Shown: one piece after another, positions 942 to 7,660 of the stretch
Layout: each line of letters starts with the position of its first letter
Position numbering within the stretch: position 1 is the first letter of the stretch
DNA from: Desulfotalea psychrophila LSv54
Lineage (GTDB): Bacteria; Desulfobacterota; Desulfobulbia; Desulfobulbales; Desulfocapsaceae
Assembly (NCBI RefSeq): GCF_000025945.1
Contig: NC_006138.1
Span: forward strand, 2,310,001 to 2,342,000
DNA length: 32,000 nt
Direction of reading: 5' to 3'
The notes under the pieces: generated by a model
Seen by the model: only the letters and a program-made list of their open reading frames with translations
Told to the model about the DNA's origin: nothing
The model's database searches: none
Program-made: the position numbers and the translations under genes

Positions 942-1913
942 ATGTTTTCAACTGATTTATATGATAGCGTTTTACTTGCTCCAGCTACACAAGGTGCTGA
1001 CCATTTACATGTCATATCTGGATATGCAACTGCGGCAATGGCGTTTCGCCATATCAGGCATGTAAATAAACAAGGGCATGACATAAAGGTAGATTTAATA
1101 GTAGGTATGTGCCCTAATGATGGCCTGTCGATTAGTAATCACAACGGTTTTAAAAAACTTGTTGAAGATGATTTTGCTGGTAAATTCGAATGCTCTTATG
1201 TGATGGCATCACCTGCTATTCATTCAAAAGTTTATGTTTGGACAAAAGATAATAAACCTGTATTTGGTTTTGCTGGTTCTGCCAATTATACTCAAAATGC
1301 TTTTTTTTCCAAACAGCGTGAAGCAGTAGCCTCATGTGATCCTAACATCGCTTACGACTATTTCCAAAATTTACTCTCTGACACCATATGTTGCACACAC
1401 AATAATGTTGAAAACTCAATACAGTTATACAATGAAAATTACTCGAAAAAGAAGCTACAACTTGTGGAGCAAGGAGCGTTTGAGGAAACAACACCTGACC
1501 ATATAAAGGGGTTACCTAAAATAACAATCTCATTACTTGCAAATAATGGCACTTTGCCGCCACGTTCTGGATTAAACTGGGGACAACGCCCAGAACAACA
1601 CAGAGCGCCAAACCAAGCCTATATAAGATTACCTTCTACCGTTTACCGGACAGATTTTTTCCCGGAGAAGACAATTCAATTTACAGTTTTAACAGACGAT
1701 GGAGAAACAATAATGTGTACTCGTGCCCAAGAGAATGGGAAAGCAATACATAGTCCCCACAACAACAGTTTAATTGGGAAATATTTTAGGAATAGACTTG
1801 GATTAACTTCCGGTGTTTTGGTTACAAAAAACGATTTGACATCATACGGTCGTAGCGATATTACCTTTTATAAAATTGATGACGAAACATATTATATGGA
1901 TTTTTCAGTTTAG
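942..1913 (+). CDS. PLD-superfamily type II restriction endonuclease (NgoFVII/BfiI-like) with C-terminal B3-like DNA-binding domain
   Basis: 323-aa ORF with an AAAGGA RBS upstream. A single HxK PLD motif (AIHSKVYVWTKD) lies in the N-terminal half. The C-terminal LNWGQR..AYIRLP..FTVLTDDGE..YGRSDITFYKIDD pattern matches the B3-like domain of NgoFVII/BfiI-type enzymes as I recall it. Confidence 0.7.
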   Translation: MFSTDLYDSVLLAPATQGADHLHVISGYATAAMAFRHIRHVNKQGHDIKVDLIVGMCPNDGLSISNHNGFKKLVEDDFAGKFECSYVMASPAIHSKVYVWTKDNKPVFGFAGSANYTQNAFFSKQREAVASCDPNIAYDYFQNLLSDTICCTHNNVENSIQLYNENYSKKKLQLVEQGAFEETTPDHIKGLPKITISLLANNGTLPPRSGLNWGQRPEQHRAPNQAYIRLPSTVYRTDFFPEKTIQFTVLTDDGETIMCTRAQENGKAIHSPHNNSLIGKYFRNRLGLTSGVLVTKNDLTSYGRSDITFYKIDDETYYMDFSV

Positions 1914-1956
1914 CTGTGAATGGACAACTTTCCCGAGTTTTATTGCGTAAATCATG

Positions 1957-2117
1957 GGTCATGATGCCAAAACGTTGAAGTAATAGTATAGTGTATTCTT
2001 TTTAATGTTTTGATATAGCTACAGCAAAAATACCTTGTCGGTTTTGTGATAGCATTGAGTGACCGGTATTTTTACAGAAAGAGAGTTTTTCTAAAACAAC
2101 AAATTGGCATAATGACC
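1957..2117 (+). mobile_element. IS1-family deletion derivative (MITE-like), copy B
   Basis: GGTCATGATGCCAAAACGTTG at 1957 and CAACAAATTGGCATAATGACC ending at 2117 are 21-nt inverted repeats (17 of 21 nt complementary, one mismatch and a 3-nt bubble). The left 45 nt equal the reverse complement of 9118-9156. The right 55 nt match copy A. Confidence 0.75.
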
Positions 2118-2151
2118 ATTTCTTAAAACTAGTCGTTGTCACCACATTCAA

Positions 2152-2865
2152 TTGCAATATCAATACCTATTGAAGAGAAACTTGAAAAAGAACTGGAGCG
2201 AAGAAGAGTTGCGTGCCTCTGTTGATGCATATGTCGAAATGCATAGCCTCGAAGCTAGAGGCAAGCCTTTTGTAAAAAAAGCCTACTACGAGACCCTCGC
2301 CAATACATTCGGTCGCACCGTGAAGTCATACGAGTACCGCATGCAAAACATCTCTTACGTCTACTCGCTTCAAGGTCGTCAGTGGGTGTCGGGGCTAAAA
2401 CCAGCCCGGAATGTCGGTGTCAATGTGATTCAGATGCTCGAAGACCTAATTGCCAAGAGTGAAGGACAACATCTAGTTGCAATCGCTTACTTTAATGCGG
2501 CAGTAGAAAAACTCAGAAAAAGACCTCCATCTTTACCTCCAAAGGGCAATAAAAAGCCAGCGTCATTTCTGTCTTCGGGCACACGATTTGTCCGAGATCC
2601 GGAAGTTGTTGCATGGGTTCTCGCTGAAGCGGCAGGCCACTGTGAATGTTGCGAGTCATCAGCACCATTTTTGCGAGAAGACGGGTCACCATTTTTAGAA
2701 GTTCATCACGTCCAGCATTTAGCAGATCATGGTGAAGATACAATAAACAATGCAGTAGCACTCTGCCCCAATTGTCACAGCGAACTGCACTATGGTATGG
2801 GCAAAAAAGAACTGGCAGAGGAGCTACGGGCGAAGATCACCAGGCTTCAAGTGACCGGCGCGTAA
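2152..2865 (+). CDS. McrA-like HNH endonuclease (COG3183-type predicted restriction endonuclease)
   Basis: The C-terminus CECCESSAPF..PFLEVHHVQHLADHGEDTINNAVALCPNCHSELHYG is the classic McrA-type HNH motif. An N-terminal NWSEEELRASVDAYVEM module is present. The start is uncertain: TTG at 2152 with no good RBS. Confidence 0.8.
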   Translation: MQYQYLLKRNLKKNWSEEELRASVDAYVEMHSLEARGKPFVKKAYYETLANTFGRTVKSYEYRMQNISYVYSLQGRQWVSGLKPARNVGVNVIQMLEDLIAKSEGQHLVAIAYFNAAVEKLRKRPPSLPPKGNKKPASFLSSGTRFVRDPEVVAWVLAEAAGHCECCESSAPFLREDGSPFLEVHHVQHLADHGEDTINNAVALCPNCHSELHYGMGKKELAEELRAKITRLQVTGA

Positions 2866-2904
2866 TACGTATAACAAGTTGTTGCAGACATAAAACTTAT
2901 ATGC

Positions 2905-2937
2905 GAAGTAGCTGAACAACAGATTGGCATCACGACC
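2905..2937 (+). repeat. Isolated IS1-family IRR-type end directly downstream of the HNH gene
   Basis: GCTGAACAACAGATTGGCATCACGACC matches the IRR-type consensus. The same HNH-3'-end plus IRR junction recurs at 28025-28203. Confidence 0.65.
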
Positions 2938-3535
2938 TGCTTTCCATTCTCTCAAGTCACCTTTTTGTAATGTTGTTACATCATCATTTTGTAGGTATCC
3001 ACCCTCCAGATTAAGAGCATGCTGTCCCGATGATATCGTAATGTACTAAATTTCAATCAATTAATTCTCCACGGAAAACGTCATCGAACCTCATATTTTA
3101 ATACTCTGCCCCCTGCCTTGTCGAAATTTCCTCAATATTCTCTAGGTGCTACAAAGAAAATCACCAAGCTATGTTCGTAACTTCTATTTATACATAACAA
3201 TAAAAAACCTTGTCAGTTTTACGGCAACGAAAGAGGTCTTGCTCTTATTCTTTAGAAACAGCCACATATGAGCGTAAGGGCTTTACATTGTTACCTTTTT
3301 ATTCAGTTTTATTGTGTGTAAAAGATATGGCAAGAGAATCAATAACTTTTTGGCCTAATTGCAGGTTGTTATCAACACAAGTACCACTTCAGTTACAGAT
3401 TGATCTAGCAACCTATTGCGAAAACGATTAAAAAGAAGCTTCTGCGTCAAGAGCAGAAATTTTTTTTCACCAATACTGAAAGCACCTTTTAAAGAGACTT
3501 TCATCACAGATAGATAAGCATACAAAGAATAAATA

Positions 3536-4618
3536 ATGAAATTTGAACTTGCGGAACTGTTTTGCGGCCCTGGAGGAATTGCCCTGGGGGCACAACTAGC
3601 TGGTGTAGTGTACAATAACAGAAACAATGAGTCTTTCTCAATTGCCCCCAGCTGGGCAACTGATTATGATGAAGCCACCTGTCGAACTTACGCTCTTAAT
3701 ATCCATAACTCTAACGAGCTTGATCTTGACACTGTAGTTTGTCAAGATGTCCGAGAGTTAGATATAGAGGCCTTGCGTCCTCGGCAAGCGTTGGCGTTTG
3801 GTTTTCCTTGCAATGACTTTAGCAGTGTTGGTGAGACAAAAGGGCTAAATGGACAATTTGGTCCTCTTTATAAATATGGTGTTAAGTACCTTCAAACACA
3901 TCAACCACAATGGTTTGTTGCAGAAAATGTTAGTGGCTTATCTCATGCCAATGGAGGAAAAGCTTTTAAACTTATCCTGCGTGAGATGGAAGATGCTGGA
4001 TACAACATCACTCCTCACCTATACAAATTTGAAGAGTATGGTGTACCTCAAGCACGCCACCGAATAATTATTGTTGGAATCAGGAAAGATCTAAATACAG
4101 AATTTAAGGTGCCTGCCCCCACAACTCCTAATCAATATAAATCTTCTGGGGAAGCTTTAACATGTCCCCCAATTCCTGAGGACGCGCCAAATCAAGAAAG
4201 AACAAGGCAGTCTCAGCAGGTTGTTGAACGCTTAAATTACATAAGACCTGGCGACAATGCTTGGTCTGAAGATATTCCTGAGCATCTTAGGTTAAATGTC
4301 AAAGGAGCAAGACTTAGTAATATTTACAAAAGACTTAACCCAAACAAACCAGCTTACACAGTCACGGGCAGTGGAGGCGGTGGAACCCATATGTATCACT
4401 GGGAAGAGCCAAGGGCTTTAACAAACAGAGAAAGAGCGAGGTTGCAAACATTCCCTGACAACTATCGATTTTGTGGAAATAAAGAAAGTGCCCGGAAACA
4501 AATAGGTATGGCAGTTCCACCTCAAGGGGTAGCTGTGATTTTAAATGCAATACTTAAGAGTTTTGCGGGGAAAGATTACAATAATGTTCCAAGCAATGTG
4601 CTAATGCGTTTTTCATAG
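3536..4618 (+). CDS. dcm: DNA (cytosine-5)-methyltransferase
   Basis: Canonical C5-MTase motifs occur in order: LFCGPGG (I), GFPCNDFS (IV, catalytic PC), AENV (VI), QARHR (VIII), GMAVPP (X). Confidence 0.95.
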   Translation: MKFELAELFCGPGGIALGAQLAGVVYNNRNNESFSIAPSWATDYDEATCRTYALNIHNSNELDLDTVVCQDVRELDIEALRPRQALAFGFPCNDFSSVGETKGLNGQFGPLYKYGVKYLQTHQPQWFVAENVSGLSHANGGKAFKLILREMEDAGYNITPHLYKFEEYGVPQARHRIIIVGIRKDLNTEFKVPAPTTPNQYKSSGEALTCPPIPEDAPNQERTRQSQQVVERLNYIRPGDNAWSEDIPEHLRLNVKGARLSNIYKRLNPNKPAYTVTGSGGGGTHMYHWEEPRALTNRERARLQTFPDNYRFCGNKESARKQIGMAVPPQGVAVILNAILKSFAGKDYNNVPSNVLMRFS

Positions 4619-5311: not shown

Positions 5312-6889
5312 ATGACAAAAGAACAAGCCCTCCTCGCCCTGGCGAAAAAGAGACAGACCACTAGGTACGACGGTTACACCTCTATCGGTGACTACAATGG
5401 TGGTGTTTGGGAGTGTGATTATGTCTCCCCCTACAGTAAATCCGCCCATAATGTTGATGCCAGGGTCATGGCCGTTTTGCAAGACTGGTGCTCATCCGAT
5501 GCTTTTACAGGTGACATTTGTGTGGAAGATTTGAGCCTTGGCTATGATAGCACGGCAAAAACTAATATTAGCTTAATGACCCTGCTCCAGAACCATTTTG
5601 GCCTCTCCCTGCAGGATACTTATACGACCAATCTGTTTCCCTATATCAAGCCTGGTGCTATGAACGCACTTATCTCCATTAAAGATCTTACTCGCGCCGC
5701 CAAAGATTTTACCCTACCCATGGTGGAAATTATTCAGCCACAGCTGGTTATCTGCTTTGGCAAAAATACCTTTAACGTCATGCGTAGGGCCTGCGGTATG
5801 GGGGATACCAATAATGTGGCAGAGGCCATCGATTCAAGTTTTCAATATCGGGGTGCCACTCTTTGCTGTCAATCCCATCCGGGGCAGTTGGGTAAAAACA
5901 ATAGAAATAAGGGTGGAGTCGATAGGGCATCCGCCGACTGGCAACGGCTAAAGACCGTATTGGACGAGAATAAAATAGAGAAACCCTCTTCAGACGTTCT
6001 CTCACCATCCACCAATAAAACAAACATCATGACTGCTAAAAAACATACAGGATTTATTCAGTGGTTCGGCCCCCTATTAAATGCCCTGCGGGACCTGGGT
6101 GACTCTGGCAGGCCCAGGGAGGTCTCTGCGAAAATAGCCGAGAACCTCAAATTACCCGATACCATCCTCGATGCAAGCTTCAAGAGTGGTACACAGAAAT
6201 TCCACAATCAGGTCTGTTGGGCCCGGCAATATCTGGTATGGGCAGGGTTCCTCGACTCGTCCATCCATGGTACCTGGAAACTGACTGAAAAGGGGCAGGG
6301 GGCACACCTCAGCGTAGATGAAGCCGCGGCTCTTACTCGAAAGTGGAAGGCTATCCATCAGGAAAGACGAAAACAGCGGCCATCTGCAGAGCATCCCGAG
6401 GCGGAAGAGATAGAGAACTTCCCCCAACCGGAAAATGATCTTCTTACCGTGCTACGTTCCATCTCCCCCACAGGTTTTGAAAAGGTTACCAGAGAGCTGT
6501 TGCGAGAATCAGGTTTTGAGAAAGTTGAAATCACAGGTGGTTCAGCAGATGAAGGTATAGATGGCTATGGTGTCCTGGCGCTGAACCCCTTTGTTAGCTT
6601 CAAGGTGATCTTTCAGTGTAAGCGCTATCAGGAGGGTAATAATGTTGGCCGAGTCCAGGTGGCCGATCTTCGTAACTCCATGTTGGGCCGTGCTGAAAAG
6701 GGTATCATCATCACCACCTCAACATTTACTCAGGCAGCTCTTAAGGAAGCAAACCGAGACGGTGCTGCCACCATAGAACTCGTCGATGGCGAAAAACTGG
6801 TAGAGATGTTCCAGAAGGTACAACTCGGCCTCACTCAGAGGGTTGTCTACGATATCGATCAAGAATATTTTGCCAAATATGCGGAGTGA
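5312..6889 (+). CDS. Fusion protein: N-terminal uracil-DNA-glycosylase-superfamily-like domain plus full Mrr (Mrr_N winged helix plus Mrr_cat PD-(D/E)xK nuclease)
   Basis: The N-terminal part carries UDG-fold landmarks in order: VMAVLQDW, TNLFPYIKPG, LVICFGKNTF, CCQSHPGQLG. The middle (LLNALRDLGDSGRPREVSAKIAE..WARQYLVWAGFLD..GTWKLTEKG) reads as Mrr_N. The C-terminus (FEKVTRELLRESGF..DEGIDGYG..FQCKRY..GIIITTSTFTQAA..IELVDGEKLVEMF) reads as Mrr_cat. Confidence 0.7.
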   Translation: MTKEQALLALAKKRQTTRYDGYTSIGDYNGGVWECDYVSPYSKSAHNVDARVMAVLQDWCSSDAFTGDICVEDLSLGYDSTAKTNISLMTLLQNHFGLSLQDTYTTNLFPYIKPGAMNALISIKDLTRAAKDFTLPMVEIIQPQLVICFGKNTFNVMRRACGMGDTNNVAEAIDSSFQYRGATLCCQSHPGQLGKNNRNKGGVDRASADWQRLKTVLDENKIEKPSSDVLSPSTNKTNIMTAKKHTGFIQWFGPLLNALRDLGDSGRPREVSAKIAENLKLPDTILDASFKSGTQKFHNQVCWARQYLVWAGFLDSSIHGTWKLTEKGQGAHLSVDEAAALTRKWKAIHQERRKQRPSAEHPEAEEIENFPQPENDLLTVLRSISPTGFEKVTRELLRESGFEKVEITGGSADEGIDGYGVLALNPFVSFKVIFQCKRYQEGNNVGRVQVADLRNSMLGRAEKGIIITTSTFTQAALKEANRDGAATIELVDGEKLVEMFQKVQLGLTQRVVYDIDQEYFAKYAE

Positions 6890-7085: not shown

Positions 7086-7259
7086 ATGATTAATAAAAAA
7101 ATAGAAATATACGGAGTCAAAGCCGTTGTACGACCCAAGATCAAGGCACTGAAAAGCCTTAATTTATCAGGGGGTGGGGGTAAACAAATCGTCAAATCAG
7201 AGACGAAATTAGTTTTAAGAACACACAAAAAAACTTTCAAAAAACTGGCTGATATGTAA
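7086..7259 (+). CDS. Small putative antitoxin (57 aa) translationally coupled to doc
   Basis: ATG at 7086; the stop TAA overlaps the doc ATG (TAATG). MINKKIEIYGVKAVVRPKIKALKSLNLSGGGGKQIVKSETKLVLRTHKKTFKKLADM. It is below the 60-aa track cutoff. A paralogous decayed copy lies at 14394-14568. Confidence 0.5.
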   Translation: MINKKIEIYGVKAVVRPKIKALKSLNLSGGGGKQIVKSETKLVLRTHKKTFKKLADM

Positions 7260-7660
7260 TGAATATAATTAGATTTCCTTTTGAAAGGGTCATAGAAATA
7301 AACAACTACATATTAGAGCATGAGCCAGGCATGAAAGGCTCTATTGACATCCCTAAACTTCAAGGCGCTTTGGCTCGTATTGACAATGCAATTGTCTACT
7401 CTGGTCTCGATGATGTCTTTGAAATAGCAGCAACATATACTGCATGTGTAGCTGTTGCCCACGCCCTCCCTGATGCCAACAAGCGTACAGGCTTAGCCGT
7501 TGCCTTAGAATACTAATCGCTCAACGATTTTGAGCTCACAGCAGATAACGAATTGCTTGCCGATGCAGTGAGAGATTTAGTCATCAAAAAAATTAGTGCA
7601 GATGATTTTGCTGATTTACTCTATGCACAGCACATAAAAGAAAATCCAACCTCAATATAA
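7259..7660 (+). pseudogene. doc: Doc (death-on-curing, Fic-fold) toxin interrupted by an in-frame TAA at 7514-7516
   Basis: Doc signature AHALPDANKRTGLAVALEY, then TAA, then the same frame continues SLNDFELTADNELLADAVRDLV..ENPTSI to a TAA at 7658-7660. Total 133 codons, the normal Doc length. Confidence 0.8.

Follow-up and report, generated by a model that had tools for sequence, protein, structure and literature searches.

The window analysed here, a stretch of 32,000 nucleotides (nt) from the chromosome of Desulfotalea psychrophila LSv54 (NC_006138.1, positions 2,310,001 to 2,342,000 of the forward strand), contains a gene whose product joins two complete proteins: an N-terminal member of the uracil-DNA glycosylase (UDG) superfamily, belonging to what we call the QDW family, and a C-terminal Mrr, a type IV restriction endonuclease by prediction. 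The parts are known, but their combination in one protein is new. In our view, the gene probably arose in this lineage by read-through from one gene into the next, which fused two enzymes that each function independently and both act on modified DNA; we assign a probability of roughly 0.55 to this reading.

According to this reading, an upstream gene of the QDW family would have lost its stop at codon 221, for instance by a change of TAA to AAA, and the 54-nt spacer behind it, which would have been in frame and free of stops by chance, would then have been read through into the Mrr start codon. Each half would keep its own chemistry on a flexible tether, making the product a two-headed modified-DNA enzyme. 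Through the tether, the Mrr nuclease may become concentrated where the glycosylase engages DNA, though there is no evidence that such coupling was selected.

Two complete proteins in one reading frame

The open reading frame (ORF) is uninterrupted over 1,578 nt, and its product matches, with 100% identity, a D. psychrophila protein of equal length encoded on the 3.52-Mb chromosome, which carries the database name 'restriction endonuclease / related to Mrr restriction system protein'. The single 525-residue ORF reported in a preliminary description of this DNA, made from its letters alone, is therefore confirmed, and the sequence landmarks quoted there were all located (LQDW at residues 56-59, TNLFP at 106-110, SHPG at 188-191 and FQCK at 434-437; Table 1).

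Sequence comparison alone leaves the identity of the N-terminal half unsettled, since its scores with UDG models are below threshold: 16-18 bits with the Pfam UDG model (cut-off 24.3), and 19.6 and 19.5 bits with the NCBIfam family-4 models TIGR00758 (cut-off 125.3) and NF040953 (cut-off 250), respectively. The matter is settled by structure. An AlphaFold2 (AF2) model of residues 1-222, built from the 63-sequence alignment A2, has a mean predicted local distance difference test score (pLDDT) of 95.4 and a predicted template-modelling score (pTM) of 0.92, and shows the four-stranded parallel alpha/beta fold of the UDGs. When this model was compared with the Protein Data Bank (PDB) using Foldseek, the top matches were the family-4 UDGs of T. 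thermophilus (1ui1/1ui0), S. tokodaii (4zbx/4zby) and T. maritima (1l9g/1vk2), with E values from 3e-9 to 1e-7, template-modelling (TM) scores of 0.55-0.62 and a probability of 1.0 for 1ui1, 4zbx and 1l9g; these were followed by UdgX, SMUG1 and TDG. There were 73 structural matches at E<=1e-3, and the 50 listed are chains of UDG, UdgX, SMUG1 and TDG, together with the phage DNA polymerase 9qhs. Thus, the UDG fold that the preliminary description had proposed for this half is borne out by the predicted structure. In sequence searches of the PDB, the single protein sequence found no matches, and a profile gave the family-4 UDGs as the only significant matches, at a weak E=3e-4, with no family-1 chain among them.

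The second half is equally complete. Residues 240-525 correspond to a full-length Mrr and are 63-69% identical to stand-alone Mrr proteins of about 291 amino acids (aa) from many phyla. Both the winged-helix domain and the nuclease domain score above their Pfam cut-offs (Table 1), as the preliminary description had led us to expect, and the PADLOC model mREase_IV matches this half with E=7e-24. The stand-alone Mrr homologues that we aligned carry the same catalytic Asp and FQCK motif, and the D...QCK signature is intact in the fusion, which we therefore predict to contain a canonical Mrr type IV endonuclease.

Stand-alone homologues of the UDG-like half end 9 to 11 residues past a conserved D209-W210 pair in 54 of 112 cases, and the modal distance of 10 residues corresponds to codon 221, which in D. 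psychrophila is AAA. At the other side of the linker, M240 in MTAKKHTGFIQWFGPL is aligned with the first residue, Met-1, of the stand-alone Mrr proteins P0122, P0123 and P0125 (MSPKKQAEFVKWFGPL). The linker between these points is probably a former intergenic spacer. No Shine-Dalgarno-like sequence is found in the DNA upstream of the internal ATG, and no terminator-like or promoter-like site between the UDG-like and Mrr halves. In the full-length AF2 model, residues 224-245 have a pLDDT below 50, and the pTM is only 0.47 while the individual domains are well folded, so that the model shows the domains strung together like beads and does not dock them onto each other with confidence. Shuffled spacers of the same composition lacked in-frame stops in 44% of the trials, and with a one in three chance of the correct frame the outcome of a read-through is not unlikely; in the other two reading frames, stops are present at 5967-5977.

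The preliminary description had allowed for the ORF being an assembly chimera of two genes. We rejected this candidate, as the source is a complete chromosome sequence, the GC content at third codon positions (GC3) is nearly the same in the two halves (0.514 in the UDG-like half and 0.517 in the Mrr half), and no promoter-like or terminator-like site was seen between them.

Table 1. Features of the fusion gene and of the restriction-modification unit beside it; positions are those of the 32,000-nt window.
Feature	Position	Strand	Basis or remark
Whole fusion ORF, 525 aa, UDG-like and Mrr	5312..6889	+	ATG start; stop codon 6887-6889
UDG-superfamily domain, residues 1-221, equivalent to a complete stand-alone protein of ~220 aa	5312..5974	+	AF2, Foldseek, alignment A1
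L56-Q57-D58-W59 (motif-1 position), C-terminal end of strand beta1	5477..5488	+	DSSP strand 52-58
T106-N107-L108-F109-P110 on strand beta2	5627..5641	+	HMM (hidden Markov model) alignment
Motif 2, S188-H189-P190-G191; H189 as the leaving-group-stabilising His	5873..5884	+	Conservation
Codon 221, AAA (Lys), modal stop position of homologues	5972..5974	+	Homologue ends after D209-W210
Linker, 18 codons, I222-I239, IEKPSSDVLSPSTNKTNI	5975..6028	+	Alignment A1; no counterpart in either family
Internal ATG, M240, corresponding to the start codon of stand-alone Mrr genes	6029..6031	+	Alignment A1
Mrr_N winged-helix domain, residues 250-329	6059..6298	+	Pfam PF14338, E=2e-18, 66.8 bits, cut-off 29.5
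Mrr_cat PD-(D/E)XK nuclease domain, residues 381-499	6452..6808	+	Pfam PF04471, E=1.7e-29, 102.7 bits, cut-off 21
ADEGIDG (catalytic D), residues 412-418	6545-6565	+	Motif search
FQCK, residues 434-437	6611-6622	+	Motif search
Neighbouring restriction-modification unit (context only)	942..4618	+	Pfam matches
NgoFVII-type phospholipase D (PLD) restriction endonuclease	942-1913	+	Pfam
HNH protein, between the endonuclease and Dcm	2152-2865	+	Pfam
Dcm methyltransferase, ending ~700 nt upstream of the fusion	3536-4618	+	Pfam

Active site of the UDG-like half

Conservation was counted over 148 representatives of the QDW family, with denominators that vary by column. At the motif-1 position, D58 is kept in 142/143 representatives, W59 in 141/143 and Q57 in 132/143; P40 is present in all 138 sequences counted and K113 in 144 of 147, while H189 of motif 2 is kept in 131/131. 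The position on strand beta2 that corresponds to residue 107 is Asn in 128 of the 147 representatives and Asp in 15. All the family-invariant residues of the UDG-like half are intact in the D. psychrophila fusion, and the two residues expected of the UDG superfamily, the motif-2 His and the beta2 Asn for contact with the flipped pyrimidine, are present as H189 and N107.

In the family-1 enzyme UNG, motif 1 contains a Q-D doublet whose Asp activates a water molecule, and family 4 has E-G instead (PMC5387724). In UDG, the Asn makes bidentate contacts with N3 and O4 of uracil (Xia et al., PMC5387724), and the motif-2 His (Tth H155, Eco H187) stabilises the leaving group (PMC5387724). In the HMM alignment N107 pairs with N82 of the S. 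tokodaii UDG ('ITNV'), and it is also aligned with E147 of Brig1, an alpha-glucosyl-hydroxymethylcytosine (hmC) DNA glycosylase (Hossain et al. 2024, PMC11078745). The QDW family therefore combines a family-4-like overall shape with a family-1-like active-site set, and residue 107 is predicted to read the Watson-Crick face of the flipped base. As the corresponding residue is Glu in Brig1, whose substrate is a cytosine derivative, the Asn of the QDW family suggests a uracil- or thymine-type base as the target rather than one of the cytosine type. Judging from these residues, we consider it most likely that the UDG-like half is catalytically active as a monofunctional glycosylase, which would flip and excise a uracil- or thymine-type base, possibly substituted at C5.

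This leads to a partial revision of the preliminary description, according to which the domain lacks the GExPG motif and is possibly non-catalytic. The motif is indeed absent, with Q-D-W in its place, but the near-invariance of D58 and H189 speaks against a loss of catalysis. The uracil-type target named there as a possibility is plausible given the alignment of N107 with the uracil-reading Asn of the S. tokodaii enzyme.

About 10% of the representatives (for example P0248 and P0385) have Asp at the base-reading position 107, and Val instead of Pro at position 110 also occurs in 15 representatives; P0385 reads 'TDLFVF'. These sequences may form a sub-clade with a different base specificity, the co-occurrence of Asp107 and Val110 having been judged by eye in a few sequences.

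The fusion is unique to D. psychrophila

In a search of approximately 5.8 billion proteins with the full-length sequence, the fusion itself was the only protein to span both halves. The remaining matches, which extend over 54-56% of the query, are all stand-alone Mrr proteins; they have 62-67% identity and, with few exceptions, a length of 289-298 aa. The N-terminal half used as query found 246 homologues with a best identity of 59-62%, and nearly all of the 120 listed have a length of 215-240 aa. A profile search of 1.84 billion cluster representatives returned 257 clusters at E<=1e-30; the matches listed are mostly of single-domain length, and the 15 extended ones that were read contain no Mrr sequence. 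Likewise, when metagenomes were scanned with a peptide spanning the junction, none of the contigs extended over both sides of it.

Nor do the two families occur together. In a collection of 185,579 species genomes, 94 matching stretches encode relatives of the UDG-like half, from which we kept 80 loci, belonging to both metagenome-assembled genomes (MAGs) and isolates, with phyla taken from the record titles. An Mrr-type ORF lies within 6 kb in just 2 of these 80 loci, in one case 4 kb off on the opposite strand and in the other, a weak match, 3 kb downstream; neither is fused or adjacent. Conversely, the genomic contexts examined for the Mrr relatives P0122 and P0125 are without a UDG-like gene. 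The fusion is thus unique to the D. psychrophila genome, a singleton whose halves are separate, and not neighbours, elsewhere. With two loci of 80 and no second fusion, the data do not show a conserved glycosylase plus nuclease system.

Several JGI proteins of 219-238 aa with a single UDG-like domain (P0011, P0068, P0077, P0087 and P0120) bear the name 'restriction system protein'. Neither of the two that were checked, P0068 and P0077, has an Mrr domain or an Mrr neighbour, and the name has probably been propagated from the D. psychrophila fusion.

The stand-alone QDW family

Proteins of the QDW family have about 220 aa and form some 250 clusters at 50% identity. The 80 loci span more than 10 phyla, including Pseudomonadota, Acidobacteriota, Planctomycetota, Chlorobiota and Latescibacterota as well as Bacteroidota, Nitrospirota, Myxococcota and Cyanobacteria, and their products are 33-55% identical to the D. 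psychrophila protein, with values near 50% throughout these phyla. That the matches are few and cross phyla indicates horizontal spread. In three loci (L020, L062 and L063, around positions 6000-6700 in each), the match is split over two ORFs, as though a frameshift, an insertion or a stop codon had interrupted the gene, which is consistent with a dispensable accessory gene.

Clustering of 620 neighbours from 82 loci gave no family common to more than four loci and hence no conserved partner. Among the 150 nearest neighbours, analysed using Pfam and PADLOC, there was no enrichment of defence genes; a few integrases, ParE toxins and Schlafen/AlbA proteins were found, together with scattered matches to defence models. 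We also considered a Dcm companion of the Vsr or Mig type as a family trait and rejected it, as a Dcm-type methyltransferase occurs within 6 kb in none of the 80 loci. The Vibrionaceae members are not integron cassettes, no attC-like repeat arrays being found around them.

Two members of the family (P0007 and P0273) carry a C-terminal DUF4268 (L092:7001-8128). The first of these is the closest relative of the D. psychrophila UDG-like half, with 62% identity, and is encoded as cargo adjoining relaxase, MobC and integrase genes. DUF4268 co-associates with GmrSD type IV enzymes and is present in MdgA/MdgB, which defend against phages T4 and Mu. A defence role of the QDW family is therefore plausible, the evidence being circumstantial, and the family is a reasonable candidate for a new defence glycosylase.

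Some members depart from the single-domain form in other ways. In P0078 and P0247 (L102:1-540), a C-terminal module of about 130-250 aa, without a Pfam family, was noticed by eye and is possibly recurrent. One Latescibacterota MAG has a single 438-aa ORF with two UDG-like domains, a tandem duplication (L052:5380-6696), and another contains several adjacent UDG-like copies or fragments (L032:2572-6753).

Relationship to known glycosylases and type IV enzymes

The family-4 UDGs are the best structural matches of the UDG-like half and share its base-reading Asn and motif-2 His. In contrast, their motif 1 is GE(A/G)PG, where the fusion has V-L-Q-D-W-C-S, and they have four Cys residues for a [4Fe-4S] cluster, whereas in the QDW family one Cys alone, C35, reaches the 90% level in alignment A2, and this position is Cys in 85/136 of the wider representatives. 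Membership in UDG family 4 was rejected because of the missing GExPG motif, the missing four Cys and scores far below the curated cut-offs. With family-1 UNG, the QDW family shares the same three-part active-site logic, which combines a Q-D doublet directly after beta1 with the Asn of beta2 and the His of motif 2, but the UNG motifs GQDPYH and HPSPLS differ from the QDW(C/S)S and H(T/P)G of the QDW family, which places it outside family 1 as well.

It is established that enzymes with the UDG fold can defend bacteria against phages, the examples being Brig1, Brig2, which targets phages whose DNA contains modified thymidine (Getz et al. 2025, bioRxiv 10.1101/2025.10.29.685425), and Brig3 (bioRxiv 10.64898/2026.02.25.707755). 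The QDW family resembles Brig1-3 in consisting of single-domain UDG-superfamily enzymes that are sporadic and horizontally spread. The best structural matches of Brig1 are also family-4 UDGs, for example that of S. tokodaii (4ZBY), and the substrate class of Brig2, compared by description, is the class of base suggested by N107. Brig1, which is also marked by Y121, differs, however, in having GLNPG as motif 1 and Glu147 at the base-reading position, where the QDW family has LQDW and Asn107, and a comparison of the QDW profile with Brig1 by hhalign detected no homology (probability 0.3%, E=0.23). Neither Brig2 nor Brig3 could be recognised among the 50 PDB matches listed. The QDW family is an uncharacterised branch of the UDG superfamily, the comparison with Brig2 and Brig3 being one of descriptions only.

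With respect to its architecture, the fusion differs from stand-alone Mrr proteins by an N-terminal extension of 239 residues, made up of the glycosylase-like protein and the linker, which is unique in the databases searched. It has the same modular layout as type IV enzymes composed of a reader domain and a nuclease (GmrSD with DUF4268, MdgA/MdgB). Unlike in those enzymes, its N-terminal module appears, from its residues, to be enzymatic, Mrr has a reader of its own, and the architecture does not occur in a conserved family. A UDG fold is also combined with another DNA enzyme in phage family-A DNA polymerases (for example 9qhs, the phiLo polymerase), which differ from the fusion in that the partner is a polymerase, the protein is phage-encoded and the similarity is weaker. 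Further UDG-like domains in phage polymerases were seen among the structural matches in BFVD, for example in A0A127AW86 of Bacillus phage SP-15.

The glycosylases have been described as compact single-domain proteins, and the type IV enzymes as having separate binding and cleavage modules (Getz et al., 10.1101/2025.10.29.685425). In our literature searches, we found no report of Brig1, Brig2 or Brig3 fused to a nuclease and no description of a fusion between UDG and Mrr, or between a glycosylase and a type IV restriction enzyme. The preliminary description did not recognise the architecture as characterised, and in this respect it holds.

Origin and meaning of the fusion

The preliminary description had suggested a different explanation, in which the UDG-like domain is a non-catalytic, base-flipping reader that targets Mrr to DNA containing uracil, hydroxymethyluracil or other modifications, and the whole protein is an evolved type IV enzyme. 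The absence of the family-4 GExPG motif would fit this explanation, and so would the fusion of UDG-like domains to other DNA enzymes such as the phage family-A polymerases (9qhs, BFVD), the other C-terminal modules of QDW members, including the type IV-associated DUF4268, and the restriction-modification unit that the fusion gene adjoins. We nevertheless regard it as unlikely, because the invariance of D58 and H189, which extends to the fusion, is unexpected for a degenerate reader. Moreover, in hundreds of genomes a protein equivalent to the whole domain works on its own, the fusion is unique while the families do not co-occur, and Mrr already has a reader domain in Mrr_N. Alternatively, the UDG-like half could be a repair enzyme, for example a deamination companion of the adjacent Dcm (cf. 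Vsr and Mig.MthI), with its fusion to Mrr being incidental. The short distance to the Dcm gene, an active-site set resembling that of the uracil-specific UDGs and the many housekeeping genes among the neighbours of stand-alone members would all agree with repair; the lack of a Dcm-type methyltransferase at every one of the stand-alone loci does not, and 94 matches in 185,579 species genomes, scattered over phyla, are unlike the distribution of a core repair gene. As the GC3 of the fusion also differs from that of the endonuclease and Dcm genes, we consider repair improbable.

Two further explanations concern the fusion as such rather than the function of its N-terminal half. It could be a sequence artefact, in which a base-calling error hides the stop between two co-directional genes 54 nt apart. 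A single substitution of TAA to AAA at 5972-5974, the modal stop position, would suffice for this, one assembly alone carries the fused protein, and the other two frames are closed by stops at the junction. Yet the source is a complete, chromosome-length sequence and not a draft, the internal ATG is not preceded by a Shine-Dalgarno-like sequence, and the spacer is in frame and free of stops, which has a chance of about 0.44 x 1/3 and, though not improbable, is not required by an error of this kind. An artefact therefore has, in our view, a small likelihood. Still less likely is an accidental fusion, neutral or slightly harmful and heading to decay, with one or both halves non-functional when fused. 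The singleton status of the fusion, the split family matches at three loci, which suggest disruption, and the apparently disrupted Doc/Fic gene adjacent to it would be in line with such a fate, but the family-invariant residues of the UDG-like half and the D...QCK of Mrr are intact, and the ORF is uninterrupted over its whole length.

A read-through fusion of two functional enzymes is consequently the explanation we prefer, and several observations weigh against it or against its import. The resemblance of the Q-D doublet to that of family-1 UNG is one of position, behind beta1, rather than of aligned sequence; in a comparison with E. coli UNG, hhalign gave a probability of 0.6% with a spurious 8-residue match. 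The fusion is known from a single assembly with AAA at codon 221. The closest relatives are just 62% (UDG-like half) and 69% (Mrr half) identical, and in the absence of a close relative of either half the fusion cannot be dated nor selection on it measured. The nearest neighbours of stand-alone members (the 150 analysed with Pfam and PADLOC) are mostly ordinary or housekeeping genes, and the QDW family was not found in the phage and plasmid collections searched. Finally, the fusion occurs only once and its probable origin is a lost stop codon, and it may therefore lack any function shaped by evolution.

A bolder version of the read-through reading, which we regard as a speculative possibility, would make the QDW family a new Brig-like family of antiviral glycosylases for uracil- or thymine-type bases, and the fusion the first natural hybrid of a glycosylase and a type IV nuclease, in which base flipping or abasic sites might license or concentrate double-strand cleavage by Mrr. 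Defence glycosylases (Brig1-3 and Dag) and type IV enzymes have been described as separate solutions to modified phage DNA, and a natural protein in which they are tethered would offer a direct way to ask whether excising bases and cutting both strands are more effective in combination.

Genomic neighbourhood

The restriction island reported upstream of the fusion gene in the preliminary description is present, with the PLD endonuclease, HNH and Dcm genes identified by their Pfam matches (Table 1). In these genes GC3 is 0.28 (NgoFVII-type endonuclease), 0.32 (Dcm) and 0.45 (HNH gene). Given that the GC3 of the fusion differs from that of the endonuclease and Dcm genes, the fusion and the restriction-modification unit were probably acquired separately.

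Downstream, the fusion gene is followed by a Fic/Doc fragment and an integrase gene. A small Phd-like ORF of 57 aa (7086-7259) precedes a Fic/Doc-family ORF of just 85 aa (7259-7516) and an ORF of 35 aa (7553-7660), and together the sequences at 7086-7660 look like a disrupted Doc-type toxin-antitoxin pair lying directly downstream of the fusion. A homologue of the HNH protein (E=8e-20) is encoded about 5 kb from a UDG-like gene in Photobacterium damselae (L086:11869-12693).

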